DNA of 64,000 nucleotides. Source: an uncultured archaeon. Lineage in GTDB: Archaea > Aenigmatarchaeota > Aenigmatarchaeia > Aenigmatarchaeales > Aenigmatarchaeaceae. Below are positions 3,108 to 61,442 of this stretch, in pieces. Every line of letters starts with the position of its first letter. The first letter of the stretch is position 1. The stretch spans positions 3,001 to 67,000 of the forward strand of contig CAYFXV010000003.1 of the NCBI GenBank assembly GCA_964347265.1. Reading direction: 5' to 3'. A program made the translations under genes and the position numbers. The notes beneath the pieces are model-generated. The model was not told where the DNA came from, searched no databases, and was given only the letters and a program-made list of their open reading frames with translations.

Positions 3108-3632
3108 CTAAATACCTCTTATTATTCTTGGGTATCCTTTTTCTACAAGACTATTGCTATATATTCCCAAACTCTCAAAAAATTTTCTGATTTTCTTTCT
3201 TCCGTTTTCAATATGATCAGTTATTACTTCAACTTCTATCCAGTTTCCAAAATCTTTAGGTTGAATAAAAGTATCTACATTAATTTCGAAATCATTTAAA
3301 GTAAAACATTTCCTTATTTTTTCAATTATTAACCATTCATAGAATTTTGATTCTAATAATATTTTTCTTGTTTGCTCTGGATCACTTATCTTTGTTTCAA
3401 ATTCTTTCCAAACACCATCTGTATCTGTTAATTCTTTATAAGTTAATTTATGGTCTTTTTTATCTTCTGATCTTATACGAAGAATAAATTTCTTTTTTGA
3501 ATTTAATGGTTTGAAAATAACATCTTTTTGTTGAACTTCATATTTAAATTTAGAATTCAGTTTTTTGATTTTATTTAAAACAATATTAATATCATCAAGC
3601 TTTGCTCTTAGTTCTACTTCCATAATTATCAC
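3108..3632 (-). CDS. CYTH-domain protein (triphosphate tunnel metalloenzyme / class IV adenylyl cyclase-like)
   Basis: N-terminal MEVELRAKL (ExExK) and C-terminal acidic ExE-like stretches (FEINVD, WIEVEV) typical of CYTH. Length 174 aa. Confidence 0.5.
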   Translation of the reverse strand: MIIMEVELRAKLDDINIVLNKIKKLNSKFKYEVQQKDVIFKPLNSKKKFILRIRSEDKKDHKLTYKELTDTDGVWKEFETKISDPEQTRKILLESKFYEWLIIEKIRKCFTLNDFEINVDTFIQPKDFGNWIEVEVITDHIENGRKKIRKFFESLGIYSNSLVEKGYPRIIRGI

Positions 3633-54396: not shown

Positions 54397-55947
54397 ATGG
54401 TAAAAGATATAATCGATAATTATCAGATAGAATCAGACAAAGTACCTGCAAAGATTAGTATAATAAAAAGACCAGAAGAATATACCCCTGTTTATGAAGT
54501 CAAGTTCCCAACAATAGAGCCTGCAACAAGAGCAATATTAGATTCTATAAAAGAAAAACTAATAGAAATTGTAAAAATAGAAATAAGCGAGATTTTAGAT
54601 CCTAAAGCCATGGAAAGCATTAAAAAGAGGTTCTTAGAGAGTGCTATTGAAACCATTTCTAAAGAAATGCCTAAAGTTTCAGACGAAGAGAAAAACATAT
54701 TGGCTGGATATCTTGTTCATGAAATGCTTGGTTTAGGAAGGCTTGAGGTTGTATTAAATGATGACAACTTAGAAGAACTAGTTATAAACAATTCTACTGA
54801 ATGCGCTTGGGTATTTCATAAAAAATTTGGATGGTTAAAAACAAACATAATGATTCCATCAGAGGAACAAATATACAATTATGCAAGTCTAATTGGAAGA
54901 AAAATTGGTAGAGAGATAACTAATTTAAGTCCATTAATGGATGCTCATTTAATAACTGGAGATAGAGTTAATGCTACTCTGTTTCCGATATCAACAAAAG
55001 GAAATACCATAACAATAAGAAAATTTAGAAGAGAGCCTTGGACAATGATAGATTTCATAGACCCTATGTATAAAACACTTACAATGGAAATAGCTGCCCT
55101 GTTATGGTTATGCATGCAGTATGAATTAAACATATTAGTTGCTGGTGGAACTGCTTCAGGAAAAACTTCAGTATTAAATGCTTTAATGCCATTCATACCA
55201 CCAAACCACAGAATAATCTCAATAGAAGATACAAGAGAATTAAGACTTCCAGATTTCTTGCACTGGATTCCTTTAACAACAAGAGAACCGAATCCAGAAG
55301 GAAGAGGGGAAATAAAAATGTTAGATCTATTAGTGAATTCATTAAGAATGAGGCCTGATAGAGTTGTTGTAGGAGAGATAAGAAGACAAGCAGAAGCTGA
55401 AGTTTTATTTGAGGCAATGCATACTGGCCATAGTGTTTATGCAACTTTACATGCTGATACAGCTGAGCAAGTAATAAGAAGACTAACTAATCCACCTATT
55501 GATCTACCAGAAACTTTGTTAGAAGCTTTGCATTTAGTTATAGTTCAATTTAGACATAGAAGAAGAGGAATAAGAAGAACATTACAAGTAGCAGAATTAC
55601 TTCCAGGAGGTGCAAGAGGTGAAGCTAAGGCAAGATTGGAAACATTATACAGGTGGAAACCTCAAACTGATAAAATAGTAAAAGTTAGGGACAGTATGAG
55701 GTTGATAGATGAAATAAGAATGCACACAGGAATGACAGACGAAGAAATGGAAAAAGATTTGGGGGAAAAGGAAACAGTCCTACAGTGGATGTTAGAAAAT
55801 AAAATAAATACTGTAAATACTGTAGGAAAAGTTATTGCTGATTATTATCATGATAAAGAAAAAGTATTAAAAATAATTAATATAAAAGGTAAACCCGAGG
55901 AAATTCTTGGACCAAGCTTTATGAAAGAACTTAAAAAGGCTGTTTAA
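54397..55947 (+). CDS. Type IV pilus / secretion assembly ATPase (FlaI/TadA/GspE family)
   Basis: Walker A LVAGGTASGKTS, Asp box, Walker B RPDRVVVGEIR and His box ATLHAD. Confidence 0.9.
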   Translation: MVKDIIDNYQIESDKVPAKISIIKRPEEYTPVYEVKFPTIEPATRAILDSIKEKLIEIVKIEISEILDPKAMESIKKRFLESAIETISKEMPKVSDEEKNILAGYLVHEMLGLGRLEVVLNDDNLEELVINNSTECAWVFHKKFGWLKTNIMIPSEEQIYNYASLIGRKIGREITNLSPLMDAHLITGDRVNATLFPISTKGNTITIRKFRREPWTMIDFIDPMYKTLTMEIAALLWLCMQYELNILVAGGTASGKTSVLNALMPFIPPNHRIISIEDTRELRLPDFLHWIPLTTREPNPEGRGEIKMLDLLVNSLRMRPDRVVVGEIRRQAEAEVLFEAMHTGHSVYATLHADTAEQVIRRLTNPPIDLPETLLEALHLVIVQFRHRRRGIRRTLQVAELLPGGARGEAKARLETLYRWKPQTDKIVKVRDSMRLIDEIRMHTGMTDEEMEKDLGEKETVLQWMLENKINTVNTVGKVIADYYHDKEKVLKIINIKGKPEEILGPSFMKELKKAV

Positions 55948-55948
55948 A

Positions 55949-56824
55949 ATGATAATTCCTTTTGTTCCATTTCCACCTAAAAAAATGGCAAAAGAAGCAG
56001 TAACACATTTCTCAAAATTCGGAGATATAATATGTAAATCTTTTCCATCTTTAAAACTAACTCTTTATCAAGCTAAAATTGGGCTAAGACCAAGAGAATA
56101 TGCATCCATGATTGTATTAACAAGTATTTTTTATTTTATATTATTGACACCCTTAATTTTTTGGATAGGTTTAGTTGCTGGCAAAATAGATTTTTTTCTT
56201 CCTTTTGTAGTCGGTGGTGTTTTTTCTCTTTTCATTTTCTTTTATTTAATACAATATCCAAGACTTGTTGCTAGCAGAAGAATGAGAATTTTAGAATCAG
56301 ATTTATTAAATTCTTTACAACACATGTTAATAGAAATTAAATCGGGTGTTCCACTCTTTAATTCAATGATAAGCATAAGTATTGGTTATGGAGAAATAAG
56401 TGAAGAATTTAAAAAAGTAGTAAGAGAGATAAATGCTGGGAAACCTGAAATAAAAGCTTTAGAAGAGGCATCAAGAAGAAACCCTTCCCTATACTTTAGA
56501 AGAACTTTATGGCAATTAACAAACTCGATTAAAGCTGGAAGTGATGTTGGTGACGCTCTTGAAGCTATTGTTCACAATTTAACACAAGAACAGATAATAG
56601 CAATAAGAAAGTATGGCCGAGAATTAAGTCCCTACACATTAATTTACATGTTAATTGCAATAATTATGCCAACATTAGGAATAACATTTTTAATTATATT
56701 ATCTTCTTTTGCAGGTATTGACATTCCGAAACTAATATTTCCTTTAATAGTAATTGCTTTAGCTGTATTCCAATACTTTTACATGGGAATAATAAAAACT
56801 AAAAGGCCTTTAATGGTGAGGTAA
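55949..56824 (+). CDS. T2SSF-domain platform protein (TadB-like half of a split FlaJ)
   Basis: A single T2SSF-like domain (LLNSLQHMLIEIKSGVPLFNSM...) plus TM helices. Confidence 0.65.
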   Translation: MIIPFVPFPPKKMAKEAVTHFSKFGDIICKSFPSLKLTLYQAKIGLRPREYASMIVLTSIFYFILLTPLIFWIGLVAGKIDFFLPFVVGGVFSLFIFFYLIQYPRLVASRRMRILESDLLNSLQHMLIEIKSGVPLFNSMISISIGYGEISEEFKKVVREINAGKPEIKALEEASRRNPSLYFRRTLWQLTNSIKAGSDVGDALEAIVHNLTQEQIIAIRKYGRELSPYTLIYMLIAIIMPTLGITFLIILSSFAGIDIPKLIFPLIVIALAVFQYFYMGIIKTKRPLMVR

Positions 56825-57817
56825 TTGAAAGATATTTACTATTTAACTCCGAAAAGATATAGAGATTTTTTCAAGAAACAAATAAGGTATGCTGGAGTAA
56901 AAGAGTCTACTACAAACAGAATAGTTGGAATCTCATATTTCTTATCAATATTACTAGCTATTAATTTTTCTTTTATTTTCTTACTATTTGGTTTCGGCCC
57001 TCTAGGATTTTTAATGGGTTTGGGAATTGGTTTTGGTGTTATAATTTGCACTTATTTAATTTTCATGTTTGTTGCAGATTCAAGGGCCAATCAAATTGAA
57101 AAGGTTTTGCCTGATGCTTTGTTATTAATGTCTGCAAACATTAGAGCTGGAATGACTGTTGACAGGGCAATATGGCTCTCTGCAAGACCAGAATTTGGGG
57201 TTCTTGAAGAAGAAATTAAAAAGGTTGGTGCAAGAACAATGGGAGGAAAACCATTGAAAATAGCACTGACTGAAATGACAAAAAACATTAAATCAAAAAT
57301 ACTAAATAGGACAGTAAAATTATTATTAGAAGGAATTAAATCTGGGGGCGAGATAGCTCATTTATTAGAAGAAACTGCAAATAATATAAGAATCAATCAA
57401 ACTCTTAAAAAAGAGATAAAGTCATCAGTAATGACTTACTCTATATTTATACTTTTTGCTGCTGTAATTGCAGCTCCGTTTTTATTTTCAATAAGTCTTT
57501 TCTTTGTTGATACAATGACAAGTCTTTGGGGTTCAGCAAGTTTTGGTGCAGGAGTAACAGGAACAACAATGGGCGTGGGAGGTCCATTCCAGAAAGCTAG
57601 AGGACCTCAAATAAATGTAGCTGATTTATTATGGTTTTCAATATCAACATTAGCTGTAACAGCATTCTTTGGTTCTCTATCAATAGGATTAATTCAAAGT
57701 GGTAAAGAAAAGAATGGATTAAAATTTATTCCAGTTTTACTCATAGGATCAATATCAGTATTATTGATATCTCAAATTGTTGTAAAGATGTTATTTGGAA
57801 GCTTTTTTGCTCTATAG
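56825..57817 (+). CDS. T2SSF-domain platform protein (TadC-like half)
   Basis: T2SSF-like domain (LLLMSANIRAGMTVDRAIWLS...) plus TM helices. The start abuts the previous stop. Confidence 0.65.
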   Translation: MKDIYYLTPKRYRDFFKKQIRYAGVKESTTNRIVGISYFLSILLAINFSFIFLLFGFGPLGFLMGLGIGFGVIICTYLIFMFVADSRANQIEKVLPDALLLMSANIRAGMTVDRAIWLSARPEFGVLEEEIKKVGARTMGGKPLKIALTEMTKNIKSKILNRTVKLLLEGIKSGGEIAHLLEETANNIRINQTLKKEIKSSVMTYSIFILFAAVIAAPFLFSISLFFVDTMTSLWGSASFGAGVTGTTMGVGGPFQKARGPQINVADLLWFSISTLAVTAFFGSLSIGLIQSGKEKNGLKFIPVLLIGSISVLLISQIVVKMLFGSFFAL

Positions 57818-57842
57818 TAATCTTTAAGTATCAAGTTAACAA

Positions 57843-57866
57843 AATAAAATATAAAATAGGAGGTAT
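57843..57866 (+). promoter_or_regulatory. TATA-like box plus GGAGGT Shine-Dalgarno upstream of the terminal pilin gene
   Basis: aaaatataaaataggaggtattaaaa immediately 5' of the ATG at 57872. Confidence 0.35.
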
Positions 57867-57871
57867 TAAAA

Positions 57872-58345
57872 ATGAAAGGACAGACAGCAGTTGAGTACCT
57901 TATGACTTATGGATGGGCAATTTTGATAATTTTAATAGTAGCTGGAGTTTTAGCATACTACGGTATATTTGCACCAGGATCATTTGTGGGACCAAGTAAA
58001 AAGGGATTCGCAACAGTAGATATTATATCACCTTGGGACTTAGATTCATCGGATGTGCTAAGATTAACATTTGAAAATAGAGTTGGTGAAGCAATAAATA
58101 TAACTAGTGTTTCTGCTGATGAAGGCACCACAGCACCAACTACGCCTACAGCTTGTGGTGGTTTGCCAGCTGGTGGTATACAAATAGCTGCAGGTGCTCG
58201 TTCAACTGTGACTTCATTCACATGTGGAGGCGCAAATGCAGGATCTACAGGACAACCGTATCAATTATACGTTATTGTAACTTATGACGCGGGAGCCATG
58301 ACAGATTTGAAAAGTACAGGTACTCTGAGTGGATCAGTAAGCTAA
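57872..58345 (+). CDS. Type IV pilin, major-pilin candidate (class III signal MKG|QTAVEYLMTY)
   Basis: MKG leader, Q+1, E+5, a hydrophobic helix and a Gly/Thr/Ala-rich globular part (157 aa). Confidence 0.7.
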   Translation: MKGQTAVEYLMTYGWAILIILIVAGVLAYYGIFAPGSFVGPSKKGFATVDIISPWDLDSSDVLRLTFENRVGEAINITSVSADEGTTAPTTPTACGGLPAGGIQIAAGARSTVTSFTCGGANAGSTGQPYQLYVIVTYDAGAMTDLKSTGTLSGSVS

Positions 58346-58386: not shown

Positions 58387-58647
58387 CTATTTCTTTTTAT
58401 GAATTCTTTTTTTCCATTTTTCTAATTTTTTGAAATAGTCTTCAAATAGATAATACCACATACCTTTTGGCCAATTATCGCTTTTATATTCTCTTTCTAT
58501 TTCTTTATCTGAATTATAAGCATGTTTTGCTTTTCCCAATTTCTTTCTGTTCTTATATCCATCAACATTAACGTCAAAGTCCTTTAATCTCACATCTCTC
58601 TTTTCCTTATCTATAACAATTGTTGAACTGATTTTTGATTGATACAT
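58387..58647 (-). CDS. Mini-gene E (86 aa from ATG 58647; the ORF track starts at 58701), Lys-rich divergent member
   Basis: The gene D stop TAA is followed by a TAATATG junction. The C-terminus is basic (KKLEKWKKRIHKKK). Confidence 0.4.
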   Translation of the reverse strand: MYQSKISSTIVIDKEKRDVRLKDFDVNVDGYKNRKKLGKAKHAYNSDKEIEREYKSDNWPKGMWYYLFEDYFKKLEKWKKRIHKKK

Positions 58648-58648
58648 A

Positions 58649-58837
58649 TTATCTCCTTCTCTGTAAGTCATAAGTATAGAAATTGGCCTTATCAAGCACA
58701 TCAGGCAGTCTATGCGATAAATCTCTTGCTATTCCTAAATCATTTGACTTAGTAGAACCTCTACCATGTATAGCTGAGAAATATTTGTTATTAGTGCACA
58801 CAGAAGTGACGCTCATTTTACCATAATATTCGGGCAT
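58649..58837 (-). CDS. Mini-gene D (62 aa from ATG 58837): MPEYYGKMSV...GRGSTKSNDLGIARDL
   Basis: About 30% identical to C. Uses the TAATG overlap with C. The ORF track begins at GTG 58846. Confidence 0.5.
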   Translation of the reverse strand: MPEYYGKMSVTSVCTNNKYFSAIHGRGSTKSNDLGIARDLSHRLPDVLDKANFYTYDLQRRR

Positions 58838-59034
58838 TATTTCCACCCCATGGACCTTTTATGAGCCTCATATGCTATTTGATTTGCTCTACTCACAGAA
58901 TCAGCCAAACCCTCTGAAATTGTTATTGCTATATCTCTATCATTTGACCTGGCAGAACCCAGACCTTCTAATTTTGTGTAATCTTTTCTTGTTGTTATTG
59001 TACTTTTATTATGAAGTTTTCCATAATACGACAT
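58837..59034 (-). CDS. Mini-gene C (65 aa): MSYYGK...GLGSARSNDRDIAITISEGLADSVSRANQI
   Basis: TAATG stop/start overlaps on both sides. NDRDIAITISEGLADSVSRAN resembles the DUF1508/YegP core (NGEvIAsSEGYaSkasAenGI). Confidence 0.5.
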   Translation of the reverse strand: MSYYGKLHNKSTITTRKDYTKLEGLGSARSNDRDIAITISEGLADSVSRANQIAYEAHKRSMGWK

Positions 59035-59195
59035 TACATCACCTCGCTTTGCACATAAGAAGCTGTATATTTTACATGATCTTTGTCTTTTCCCACAACT
59101 TTTAGACTTCTTTCAAAAGTTGTAGAATTTTTATTTCCACGTAAACTTCTATAGAATTCACTTTTTACATAATACGGAGATCTTTTATTTACCAT
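59034..59195 (-). CDS. Mini-gene B (53 aa from ATG 59195; the ORF track extends it to 59270)
   Basis: MVNKRSPYYVKSEF... The ATG lies 4 nt after the gene A stop. Its stop overlaps the gene C start (TAATG). Confidence 0.45.
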   Translation of the reverse strand: MVNKRSPYYVKSEFYRSLRGNKNSTTFERSLKVVGKDKDHVKYTASYVQSEVM

Positions 59196-59199
59196 AAAA

Positions 59200-59445
59200 T
59201 CACAGAGGACTGAAATATCCTTGGTCTCTTCCATATTTTTTCTTAATTTGTCTGTCAAAGTCTTCTTCAAGAGAAGCAGTTACACTACAATAGTCTTTTG
59301 AAGCCTTTGTTTCTTTTATACCAAATGAATTCATAGCACCTATCAATCCTCTATTTCTATGAACTATAGAATGGTCAACCTGAGACCCACCATAATCTGT
59401 TTCAACTGTTGTTTTACCTCTTTCTGATCTAACTCTCATAGTCAT
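59200..59445 (-). CDS. Mini-gene A (81 aa) of the five-gene paralogous array, dodecin/DUF1508-like
   Basis: GGAGGTG SD 6 nt upstream. Contains DYGG...GLIGAMNSFGI, related to the YYGK...G.GS..SND..IA repeat. Confidence 0.5.
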   Translation of the reverse strand: MTMRVRSERGKTTVETDYGGSQVDHSIVHRNRGLIGAMNSFGIKETKASKDYCSVTASLEEDFDRQIKKKYGRDQGYFSPL

Positions 59446-59456
59446 TTTAACACCTC

Positions 59457-59930
59457 CTAAGAATTTTTTAAAAGAAGATCAAGCTTTTCTAAAGTTGAAA
59501 AAACGTTGTTTAAATTGGTTGAAATTATTGGAACTTGGAAATTTCTTTTTTGCATTTCGTTTTCAATTCCTTTTATTAAGATTCCTCTTCCAGGAATGTT
59601 CTTCCTACCATTGTTAATTCTATAAACACCACATATTGGAGAAAATTCTACTCCAAGAATTCCTAGAACTTTAAAATTCGCATCTAAATATTTCTTAATT
59701 GTATTTACAATAAAAGAAGAAGTTTTTTTACAATAATTCTTACAAATTTTAGCATTATTTTCATTTCTTATAAACCTTCCATTACATTCTATTTTTGGAC
59801 AGGGTAATTGAACTATTCCTACGCCAGATTCAGTAAACAACCCTACTAATTCTTTTATTTTAGAGAATTTTTCTTTTCTTATACTCTGATTTAATATACA
59901 ATGTGAGACAAAAATTATTTTTTCACTCAT
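59457..59930 (-). CDS. DUF523 family protein, paralog 2, first gene of the mini-gene operon
   Basis: IIFVSHCILNQSIR...GVGIVQLPCPK...C. 11-nt spacing to mini-gene A. Confidence 0.55.
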   Translation of the reverse strand: MSEKIIFVSHCILNQSIRKEKFSKIKELVGLFTESGVGIVQLPCPKIECNGRFIRNENNAKICKNYCKKTSSFIVNTIKKYLDANFKVLGILGVEFSPICGVYRINNGRKNIPGRGILIKGIENEMQKRNFQVPIISTNLNNVFSTLEKLDLLLKNS

Positions 59931-60003: not shown

Positions 60004-60621
60004 CTAAAAGAAGCTACCTGAGAGTGGCCCACCAACAAAAGCTCCTATTAGAAACATGAATGCAAGACCTACTAATATAACTATGAGCACTGTTACAATA
60101 CCAACTGGTACTAACCATGTAAGAACTGCTCTTCCTGTTGTATAATTATGGGCTTCCTTTAATGCCATTGTTAAAAGATACAAACCATAAGCCATAACTA
60201 TAAGTGCTAAGAATATACCTGCAAGGGGAATCAAAAATAATATTGATGTTATAATACTCAATGGTGCATAGTAAATAGCATAAAGGTAAGATTGGGTTGT
60301 ATAACTTCCTTTTCCACCGAACAACATAGCAAATATGTATAGTACACCTGATACTATTAACCAGTATAAAACAGCCATTATTGGTGCAAATATTAAAGTT
60401 GCTAAAAATACTATAGGACCTGTAAAAGCTGAAGCAATAGGAGAGAATTGACCTGCTAATACTGAACCAAAGACCATATCAATTAAACCTGTTATGAATC
60501 CTGTTATAAGACCTGCCACAGCCATGTGTAGAGCGCCTTCACCAAGATTTGCATTTTTCTTTTCTTTTTTAAATGTTTCTAAAGGCTTTGTTAAGCTGCC
60601 TATCCACAAATTAAAATTCAA
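60004..60621 (-). CDS. Yip1/DUF1282-like five-TM membrane protein
   Basis: Cytosolic N-terminus then five hydrophobic helices, with topology and size like the Yip1 family. Confidence 0.4.
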   Translation of the reverse strand: MNFNLWIGSLTKPLETFKKEKKNANLGEGALHMAVAGLITGFITGLIDMVFGSVLAGQFSPIASAFTGPIVFLATLIFAPIMAVLYWLIVSGVLYIFAMLFGGKGSYTTQSYLYAIYYAPLSIITSILFLIPLAGIFLALIVMAYGLYLLTMALKEAHNYTTGRAVLTWLVPVGIVTVLIVILVGLAFMFLIGAFVGGPLSGSFF

Positions 60622-60665
60622 ATAATCACCCTATTCTATTAAATATAGTAATCCTCTTATAAAAC

Positions 60666-61442
60666 TTACTTTTTATGTCTTTTTTCCAGATATACAGAAG
60701 TGTAAGAAAGAAGAAGCAAAGGCGTTGTTACAAAAGCTTCTAAAACTGAGCCAATGAATGAAAAAACAGTAGTTAGTCCTGAATTTATTAGAATGAAAAT
60801 TATCATTAAACCCAAAATTGTCAAATAGCTTTTCTTTGAAACTTCAAAACTCTTACCAATAGAATCAATTGCTTTTAGATTGTCAATTACTATTGCCTGA
60901 TTAATAAAAACAAAGAAAATACTAATTAAAACTAAAAGTATTGAACCCAGGGCCACTATTAAAAAAATAGTAATTAACGGAACCAAAGAAGATCCTCCAG
61001 CAAATAATGTTGGAAAGCCTGTCAACAAAAATAAAGGAGAGAATACAGCAATAAAAATAATGAAGAAAATTAAAACAAAAAGTGAATTAGCTCCAATTAT
61101 TGTCCAGAATTTTTCTTTAGCTGTTTTTAACATTGTTTCATATTTTGTTTTTCTTCTCAAAGCTTCATAAAGCATTTTTACAAAACCACCAGTCAAAGCA
61201 ATTGATATCAAAAATCCTATTACGAACATTACTATAGAAAATGAAAGAAGACCTAAATTAGATAGAAAAAGTGTTGATAAATCAACGCCTTTAGAAAATA
61301 AGAAAATAAAAATCCAAGGTAGAACACCAATTAAAAATGGTATGCCAGCAAGTATAAATTGTAGAATCATGGCTGTTAAAATAGGCCAGAAATTCTTTCT
61401 GTAGGCCTTCCAAGATTTTTCTATGTGTTCTATTACCATCAA
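60666..61442 (-). CDS. Polytopic membrane protein (hypothetical, 258 aa)
   Basis: Six or more TM helices. No family. Confidence 0.45.
   Translation of the reverse strand: MMVIEHIEKSWKAYRKNFWPILTAMILQFILAGIPFLIGVLPWIFIFLFSKGVDLSTLFLSNLGLLSFSIVMFVIGFLISIALTGGFVKMLYEALRRKTKYETMLKTAKEKFWTIIGANSLFVLIFFIIFIAVFSPLFLLTGFPTLFAGGSSLVPLITIFLIVALGSILLVLISIFFVFINQAIVIDNLKAIDSIGKSFEVSKKSYLTILGLMIIFILINSGLTTVFSFIGSVLEAFVTTPLLLLSYTSVYLEKRHKK

Follow-up and report, generated by a model that had tools for sequence, protein, structure and literature searches.

A five-gene microprotein cassette conserved among Aenigmatarchaeota and their relatives

Positions 58387 to 59445 of a 64-kb stretch of archaeal DNA (the entire sequence analyzed, hereafter the window) carry five short open reading frames (ORFs) on the minus strand, designated A to E, which succeed one another in alternating frames. 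This locus raises the question of whether the ORFs are what is left of one broken gene or are five genes in their own right and, if the latter, what sort of proteins they encode. A first-pass annotation of the window had proposed an undescribed array of five translationally coupled, paralogous mini-genes, each beginning with its own copy of a YYGK-type repeat and each encoding a split YegP/DUF1508-like (dodecin-like) domain. Given the evidence presented below, we consider it nearly certain that the cassette is a real and conserved operon of five microprotein genes. Its design, in which small genes follow one another with coupled translation, is an ordinary one; its proteins fit no known kind, and they are categorically new in the sense of being unplaced.

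Layout and conservation of the five genes

The five ORFs tile 100% of this 1059-nt segment. Gene A (59200..59445, 81 amino acids [aa]) begins with an ATG at 59445 and ends with a TGA at 59202..59200. Four nucleotides (tttt) past this stop lies the ATG of gene B at 59195 (59034..59195, 53 aa); initiation at another in-frame ATG, at 59234, would yield a 66-aa protein, which is the version picked by the public gene caller. Gene C (58837..59034, 65 aa) starts with an ATG at 59034 that overlaps the stop codon of B, and it is followed by its paralog, gene D (58649..58837, 62 aa, ATG at 58837), and by gene E (58387..58647, 86 aa, ATG at 58647). The junctions A/B, B/C, C/D, and D/E read TGAttttATG, TAATG, TAATG, and TAATATG, respectively. 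A Shine–Dalgarno (SD)-like GGAGGTG, read from the minus-strand sequence at 59451..59457, is separated from the ATG of A by 5 nt (TTAAA) and is overlapped by the TAG stop codon of the preceding gene, whose product is related to the desulfidase TudS. Similar motifs are found 4 to 5 nt 5′ of the starts of C (GAGGTGA), D (GGGGTGG), and E (AGGAGA), and none is present upstream of B in the window sequence, such that four of the five starts are equipped in this manner. The gene order, the junctions, and the SD motif of A had been described in the first-pass annotation and were confirmed when the sequence was read again.

Such complete tiling far exceeds what chance would produce. When 2000 sequences of matching composition were simulated with a first-order Markov model, ORFs of 50 aa or more covered on average 3.5% of the segment and at most 57%, and no simulation reached 90%. 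The opposite strand of the same segment contains no ORF longer than 77 aa, and the GC content of the window as a whole is 30.5%. No terminator was found by a scan of the cassette region, and the promoter scan was based on the sigma-70 consensus, which is uninformative for an archaeon.

The window sequence matches a Candidatus Aenigmarchaeota/Aenigmatarchaeota metagenome-assembled genome (MAG; GCA_011772535.1, contig WVZI01000079.1), and protein C has exactly the sequence of NIM47578.1, annotated as “hypothetical protein GTN40_05490.” An exact-protein look-up of C/D homologs and one pattern scan of GTDB representatives, which located C-type proteins in three species, yielded a set of 11 lineages (L001, which is the window, L002/L019, L020, L021, L012, L011, L008, L015, L005, L014, and L017); a separate scan of these representatives with a D-type pattern found nothing. 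All 11 carry five short ORFs in identical order and of similar sizes (A about 72 to 85 aa, B 47 to 55, C 61 to 69, D 62 to 70, and E 73 to 101), in loci whose GC content ranges from 30 to 58%. Intergenic gaps run from −4 nt (an ATGA overlap) to +10 nt, with a single exception of 31 nt. In these lineages, 39 of the 55 cassette starts are preceded by SD-like motifs; the corresponding figures for the window are 13 of 64 for long ORFs and 7% for random positions. For gene A, the motif is present in 10 of the 11 lineages. The array is split wherever it was found, and the earlier description of separately initiated, tightly packed genes holds for all 11 lineages; as detailed in the next section, the accompanying idea that all five are paralogs does not.

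Existing gene calls do not always reflect this layout. The A gene of L005 (5578-5840) was annotated as only 59 aa due to a mis-called start, and the full ORF of 85 aa regains the conserved N-terminal hairpin region M-x-F-R-V-T-R...T-A-E-S-D. Likewise, gene B of L017 is absent from the gene calls yet present in the DNA. The B/C junction has an additional peculiarity in that the C-terminal V-M-P-stop of B is dual-coded: GGTGATGCCATGA holds both an SD sequence (GGTGAT) and the ATGA overlap between the stop of B and the start of C. This feature is present in the window (59034-59045) and in L005, L011, L012, L014, L017, and L021. Because the C terminus of B also encodes the SD and start of C, part of the conservation observed for B is a translational signal.

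Substitution patterns indicate that purifying selection acts on every one of the five genes. Between the window and L002, the ratio of nonsynonymous to synonymous substitution rates (dN/dS), with each ORF read in its own frame, is 0.38 for A, 0.14 for B, 0.12 for C, 0.05 for D, and 0.21 for E, comparable to the value of 0.13 for the neighboring enzyme gene. Moreover, every cassette ORF exhibits an excess of third-position substitutions in its own frame.

These data bear directly on whether the cassette is a frameshifted, decayed remnant of one multi-repeat gene, or perhaps an assembly artifact. Alternating reading frames would be expected of such a remnant, and isolated defects do occur in poor assemblies, including a frameshift inside gene D of L004 (3827-4016) and, in L020 (4960-5003), a +1 indel where gene B ends, together with a C gene that starts with GTG. 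Both of these lie on short or low-quality contigs, as does a pilin gene broken into two pieces in L003 (5607-6061), and the defects in all three probably stem from errors of assembly or from local decay. However, decay of a single gene would not leave a start codon at each junction of the same five-ORF structure in 11 lineages of such different base composition, nor selection on each ORF in its own frame. It is also at odds with the outcome of an exhaustive search in which HMMER compared a C+D profile with 1.84 billion cluster representatives and returned 26 matches. Of these, 24 are stand-alone proteins of 55 to 71 aa that match end to end in one stretch, and the other two are long repetitive proteins that are clearly spurious. 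No fused or multi-repeat C/D relative was present among the cluster representatives. Word-indexed searches with a concatenated A–E protein or with a 10-locus profile likewise gave no long homolog, a weak result in that known small homologs were missed as well. We therefore regard a pseudogene or assembly artifact as barely conceivable. The first-pass annotation had reached the same view, and the single in-frame multi-repeat protein in relatives that would have spoken for decay was looked for and not encountered.

Relatedness and predicted fold of the products

By sequence, C and D are clear paralogs, with 38% identity over 58 aa (BLASTP E = 1e-12; Smith–Waterman z = 19 versus shuffled sequences), consistent with the alignment of about 55 aa noted previously. 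No significant single-sequence similarity exists between any other pair among A to E. More remote relationships were examined by using ortholog alignments of A, B, and E (A4, A5, and A6) and a 26-member C/D alignment (A3). When aligned by hhalign, the B profile is co-linear with that of C/D over 45 columns (score 18.4, P = 0.0022), which exceeds the scores of all 150 column-permuted B controls (maximum 17.1). This suggests that B is probably a remote relative of C and D that is shorter at its C terminus. The A and E profiles match those of C/D, and each other, no better than permuted controls. A crude hydrophobic-periodicity scan that recovers the secondary structure of C and D makes the N termini of A and E look like a hairpin followed by a helix, which is a hint of shared architecture. 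Thus, five paralogs were too many: C and D are related, B is a possible distant member, and A and E carry no signal. Nor is the proposed repeat present in every unit, since none of A, B, and E resembles C/D, or another of the three, significantly in pairwise comparison, and the “TDYGG” of A is not a copy of YYGK.

Each family nonetheless has recognizable conserved positions. In the C/D proteins, conservation extends from end to end, with the shared motif YYGK...KST...EGxGxxRSNDxxIARxLSxGLxxxVDxANxIAYxxHKR. The A family is characterized by M-x-[IF]-R-V...T-V-E-[TS]-D...D-H...R-x-L...M...K-Y-G-x-D, the B family by S-x-x-Y-[VL]-[KR]-S...Y-G...S-T-x-Y-E-R-x-L-x-V-x-G-x-D, and the N terminus of the E family by M-Y-x-x-S-V-S-S-x-M-x-I-D...D-V-x-V-x-G-Y-R. 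All five proteins are hydrophilic (grand average of hydropathy −0.2 to −1.5), and no signal peptide, transmembrane segment, or class III pilin leader was found in any of them. None of the families has a conserved cysteine, with cysteine counts of 0 to 2 per protein.

AlphaFold2 modeling of C with a 28-sequence alignment gave a mean predicted local distance difference test score (pLDDT) of 91.0 and a predicted template modeling score (pTM) of 0.68; without an alignment, the model was poor (pLDDT 66). In the alignment-based model, strands at residues 5-15 and 20-30 form a β-hairpin and residues 33-62 form a helix of 30 residues. The model thus represents a high-confidence prediction, for C, of a long β-hairpin packed against a single long helix. 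Foldseek searches with this model revealed no significant structural neighbor (best E of 1.9 versus the PDB and 0.37 versus viral models), and neither dodecin nor YegP chains were among the matches listed.

Sequence libraries were equally uninformative. In scans of A to E and their divergent orthologs, Pfam gave nothing consistent, NCBIfam was empty, PADLOC produced no match at E ≤ 1, and PHROGs yielded only isolated matches (E ≥ 0.02) with nothing consistent among them. When profiles of A, B, C/D, and E were compared with PDB sequences, only short, motif-like matches below threshold were recovered. These included dockerin, uL6, eS1, and the designed protein Tako8, all of which are short enough and weak enough to be attributed to chance. 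The similarity of C/D to dockerin involves a G-x-G-x-V-x-S-x-D turn, and that of B to uL6 the pattern V-x-V-x-G-x-D...V...A..IR; because both reflect a shared motif of a strand, a glycine turn, an Asp N-cap, and a helix, they do not indicate homology. We also rejected a dockerin/EF-hand Ca-binding loop (D-x-[DN]-x-D-G...D): the EGxGxxRSNDxxIA turn of C/D is only weakly similar to dockerin repeats (E = 0.016), with no single significant stretch, and the Ca-ligand positions 1, 3, and 5 vary across the C/D alignment. The A to E families are therefore present in none of Pfam, NCBIfam, PHROGs, PADLOC, or the PDB, and public records list their members as hypothetical, in keeping with the earlier statement that the arrangement is undescribed.

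The specific assignment to split YegP/DUF1508 domains, perhaps forming a dodecin-like ring, was examined separately. YegP/DUF1508 and dodecin proteins are likewise built from small α/β units (about 50 to 70 aa), whose working form is a dimer, pseudo-dimer, or higher oligomer. Dodecins have a β-α-β-β topology, which differs from the strand, strand, helix order predicted for C. A DUF1508 domain may stand alone, in tandem, or as part of an array (10.1101/2024.11.21.623966), and the SND..IA..L core of C and D had been likened to the DUF1508 consensus. However, the Pfam models PF07411 and PF07311 match none of A to E at E ≤ 10, and none of 26 C/D or nine E family members at E ≤ 1. YegP and dodecin were absent from the profile searches of PDB sequences, and the predicted C fold was not found to superpose on the YegP-type structures 2K8E and 6Q2Z. 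With no PF07311 match, a different order of secondary structure, and no dodecin among the fold matches, membership in the dodecin family was rejected. Moreover, the cassette units are separate genes of which only two or three are related. A split DUF1508 array is thus extremely unlikely, and this part of the original proposal is best abandoned.

A possible complex and its alternatives

What the five proteins do can be addressed only by weighing several proposals. We lean, by a small degree, toward a lineage-restricted, translationally coupled operon that encodes five cytoplasmic microproteins forming one hetero-oligomer. The overlapping or near-overlapping stops and starts, together with the internal SD-like motifs, would couple translation of A to E and might thereby provide roughly equimolar products. 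A hairpin accompanied by a helix with one conserved face would be suited to oligomerize through sheet extension. Because the hairpin-plus-helix unit appears too small and too exposed to be stable as a monomer, one hetero-oligomer is the arrangement that most likely suits A to E, and we judge that there is an even chance that they do form a single complex. Perhaps a common sheet or barrel arises by pairing of the hairpins of B, C, and D, possibly along with the hairpin-like N termini of A and E, and the helices pack around it. Small oligomerization modules composed of a β-sheet plus a helix, such as YbaB/EbfC, the Gon7–Pcc1 pair of KEOPS, and the COMM domain, are among the closest known systems.

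The C-terminal region of E offers one clue to where such a complex might be located. It consists of an aromatic amphipathic segment followed by a poly-basic tail, and the last 12 residues carry a net charge of +4 to +8 in 10 of 10 orthologs. In about half of these ten, the aromatic stretch just before the tail is the strongest amphipathic segment of the protein. For example, LFEDYFKKLEKWKKRIHK, at residues 67-84 of E, has a hydrophobic moment of 0.66, a value reached by one of 500 shuffled sequences. No transmembrane segment is evident in E, given a maximum of ≤ 0.03 for Kyte–Doolittle hydropathy over 19 residues. One possibility is that the helix and tail tether the complex to a membrane surface or to nucleic acid, although we hold this only tentatively. 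A weak match of E elsewhere in the window by tblastn (3171-3359, E = 0.002, 27% identity over 63 aa) falls inside a 174-aa ORF (3108..3632) and was dismissed as compositional (Lys/Glu-rich) rather than as a sign of a paralog.

A more complete model can be imagined in which an undescribed ring, barrel, or short filament is composed of the hairpin-plus-helix module of B, C, and D together with A and E, is anchored to membrane or RNA by E, is specific to the Aenigmatarchaeota branch, and possibly cooperates with the TudS-related enzyme in acting on tRNA or thiolated nucleotides. This composite is speculative, and we consider it doubtful as a whole.

Several findings weigh against a shared complex. 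By sequence, neither A nor E can be linked to B, C, or D, and a fold common to all five is only suggested by the crude periodicity scan. The SD-like motif precedes B in only 6 of the 11 lineages and E in only five. Because the isoelectric points of A to D shift with the GC content of the genome, between about 5 and 10, and are not consistently basic, there is no conserved charge property that points to a ligand. In addition, C/D proteins are rare: the C and D types together make up about 24 clusters at 50% identity in a collection of 15 billion proteins, so they do not serve a core archaeal function. The family is seen only in Aenigmatarchaeota-type MAGs and their relatives.

The gene directly upstream of A (59457..59930, minus strand, 157 aa) encodes a TudS-related (DUF523-type) putative [4Fe-4S] desulfidase. 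Its product matches NCBIfam NF045597 (CD3072 family TudS-related putative desulfidase) with E = 8.9e-27 and 93.6 bits, below the cut-off of 130, and Pfam PF04463 (2-thiour_desulf) with E = 0.003 and 18.1 bits, below the cut-off of 34.7; the L012 ortholog has an unmarked PF04463 match on record. A phmmer search with the protein found no PDB chain. TudS proteins are [4Fe-4S] desulfidases that act on 4-thio-UMP and thiouracils, wherein three cysteines serve as cluster ligands; in TudS_A these are Cys10, Cys43, and Cys104, and the enzyme also uses a catalytic Glu and two Ser residues (PMC10611767). Inspection by eye places Cys11, Cys43, and Cys99 of the window protein in comparable contexts (SHC, LPCP, and SPIC), and the positions of the catalytic Glu and Ser residues are not clearly aligned.

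Orthologs of this gene are located directly upstream of the cassette and in the same orientation in 6 of the 11 lineages, with gaps of 9 to 11 nt (61 nt in L014). In L005, L008, and L015, the ortholog is instead downstream on the opposite strand, beyond the gene for arginyl-tRNA synthetase (ArgRS), at a distance of 2 to 4 kb (within about 4.3 kb), and the available DNA of L011 and L017 showed no ortholog. Adjacent or nearby copies are thus present in 9 of 11 lineages, and the linkage is recurrent and not obligatory. Whether the array is always linked to a DUF523 gene had been posed as a question; direct adjacency holds in six lineages and fails as a general rule. A functional tie between cassette and desulfidase is possible.

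The proposals that compete with a shared complex differ in how much of this evidence they accommodate. A to E could act independently of one another, for example as regulators or stress proteins, and merely share a transcript without forming a single complex. The absence of any relationship between A or E and the other three speaks for this idea, and interaction among the five is, after all, a matter of inference. We nevertheless find independent proteins unlikely. Very diverged genomes all keep the five genes in the same number and order and with tight or overlapping junctions, as is typical of stoichiometric partners, and the predicted C fold, with its large exposed hairpin and single helix, is unlikely to be stable alone. 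Another suggestion is that A to E are accessory subunits or adaptors of the desulfidase that, for instance, bind substrate or tRNA. The persistence of the enzyme gene next to the cassette, or within about 4.3 kb of it despite rearrangement, would fit this role, and a precedent is provided by RudS, described as a TudS–DUF1722 fusion that removes the s4U (4-thiouridine) modification from tRNA, in which the TudS-type enzyme is extended by a module for tRNA binding (PMC11417400; PMC10611767). The likeness is confined to the upstream gene, which belongs to the TudS-related superfamily; A to E have no similarity to DUF1722 in Pfam scans, and desulfidase linkage is not universal, given the opposite-strand and missing orthologs noted above. 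The lack of conserved cysteines in the five families is a further argument against such a role. Because Sec61beta, Yip1, NUDIX, ArgRS, and pilin genes are retained about equally well, plain synteny explains the linkage, and we consider accessory subunits of the desulfidase distinctly improbable.

The remaining proposal is a mobile or accessory cassette, such as precursors of ribosomally synthesized and post-translationally modified peptides (RiPPs) or bacteriocins, a toxin–antitoxin module, or anti-virus defense, or else a set of cytoplasmic type IV pilus accessories. Adjacent small paralogous ORFs do look like precursor-peptide arrays, an integrase is encoded about 5 kb away just beyond the window, and an archaeal type IV pilin-like gene (57872..58345, plus strand, 157 aa), which lies outside the cassette, is convergent with it in 6 of the 11 lineages, as had been pointed out for the window. 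However, PADLOC, PHROGs, and the viral structure library provided no support, the chromosomal surroundings are stable and include housekeeping genes, and no conserved modification enzyme or transporter is nearby. The proteins are also conserved from end to end and predicted to fold. Further points against this proposal are the lack of signal peptides and class III leaders in A to E and the absence of pilus genes beside the cassette in L005, L008, and L015; TauE or ArgRS genes occupy the place of the pilin gene in other lineages. Any of these roles would be very surprising.

A shared complex of A to E also recalls the sulfur-relay heterohexamer TusBCD/DsrEFH, in which small paralogous subunits encoded by adjacent, often overlapping genes assemble into one hetero-oligomer. 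The likeness is one of gene layout and of thematic nearness to thio-nucleotide metabolism through the TudS-related neighbor. No similarity of sequence or fold to this system was found, although no search aimed at its sequences was made. Because A to E have no conserved cysteine, a persulfide relay is excluded, and Tus-like sulfur-relay proteins (TusA and TusBCD/DsrEFH), which depend on an invariant catalytic cysteine, were rejected as relatives of all five families.

DPANN archaea have tiny genomes. Because the cassette is intact, ordered, and under purifying selection at GC contents from 30 to 58% despite this economy, it is probably useful to its hosts. It offers a compact test case for functional microproteins of 47 to 101 aa, which are usually missed by gene callers and curated databases, as well as an example, in protein C, of a confidently predicted small fold without a structural neighbor. 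If the five products do form one complex, this would be a new small-subunit assembly that should be easy to reconstitute in Escherichia coli. Lineage-specific “dark matter” is abundant in DPANN genomes, and the value of the cassette is that of a well-defined candidate rather than a solved mechanism.

Chromosomal surroundings

The genes that recur around the cassette include those for Sec61beta, DUF7847, Yip1/DUF4013, NUDIX, and ArgRS proteins. The simplest reading is that the neighborhood represents conserved chromosomal synteny beside housekeeping genes. In the window, the convergent pilin gene is part of a complete archaeal type IV pilus-like locus (54397-58345) that encodes a T2SSE ATPase, two T2SSF membrane proteins, and the pilin with its class III-type leader. 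The same convergent pilus arrangement is seen in L002, L011, L012, L020, and L021.

On the other side, in the region 60004-61442 and at related loci, genes for Yip1-domain and DUF7847 membrane proteins and for Sec61beta are recurrent upstream neighbors in several lineages, and a DUF4013 membrane protein gene lies upstream of the cassette in L011 and L016. Past the right end of the window (L001 1335-5423, equivalent to window positions of about 64,500-68,600), a tyrosine integrase (Phage_integrase), a helix-turn-helix protein, and small ORFs are encoded. This group adjoins a DEAD-box helicase gene about 5 kb from the cassette, and the region may be an integrated element.

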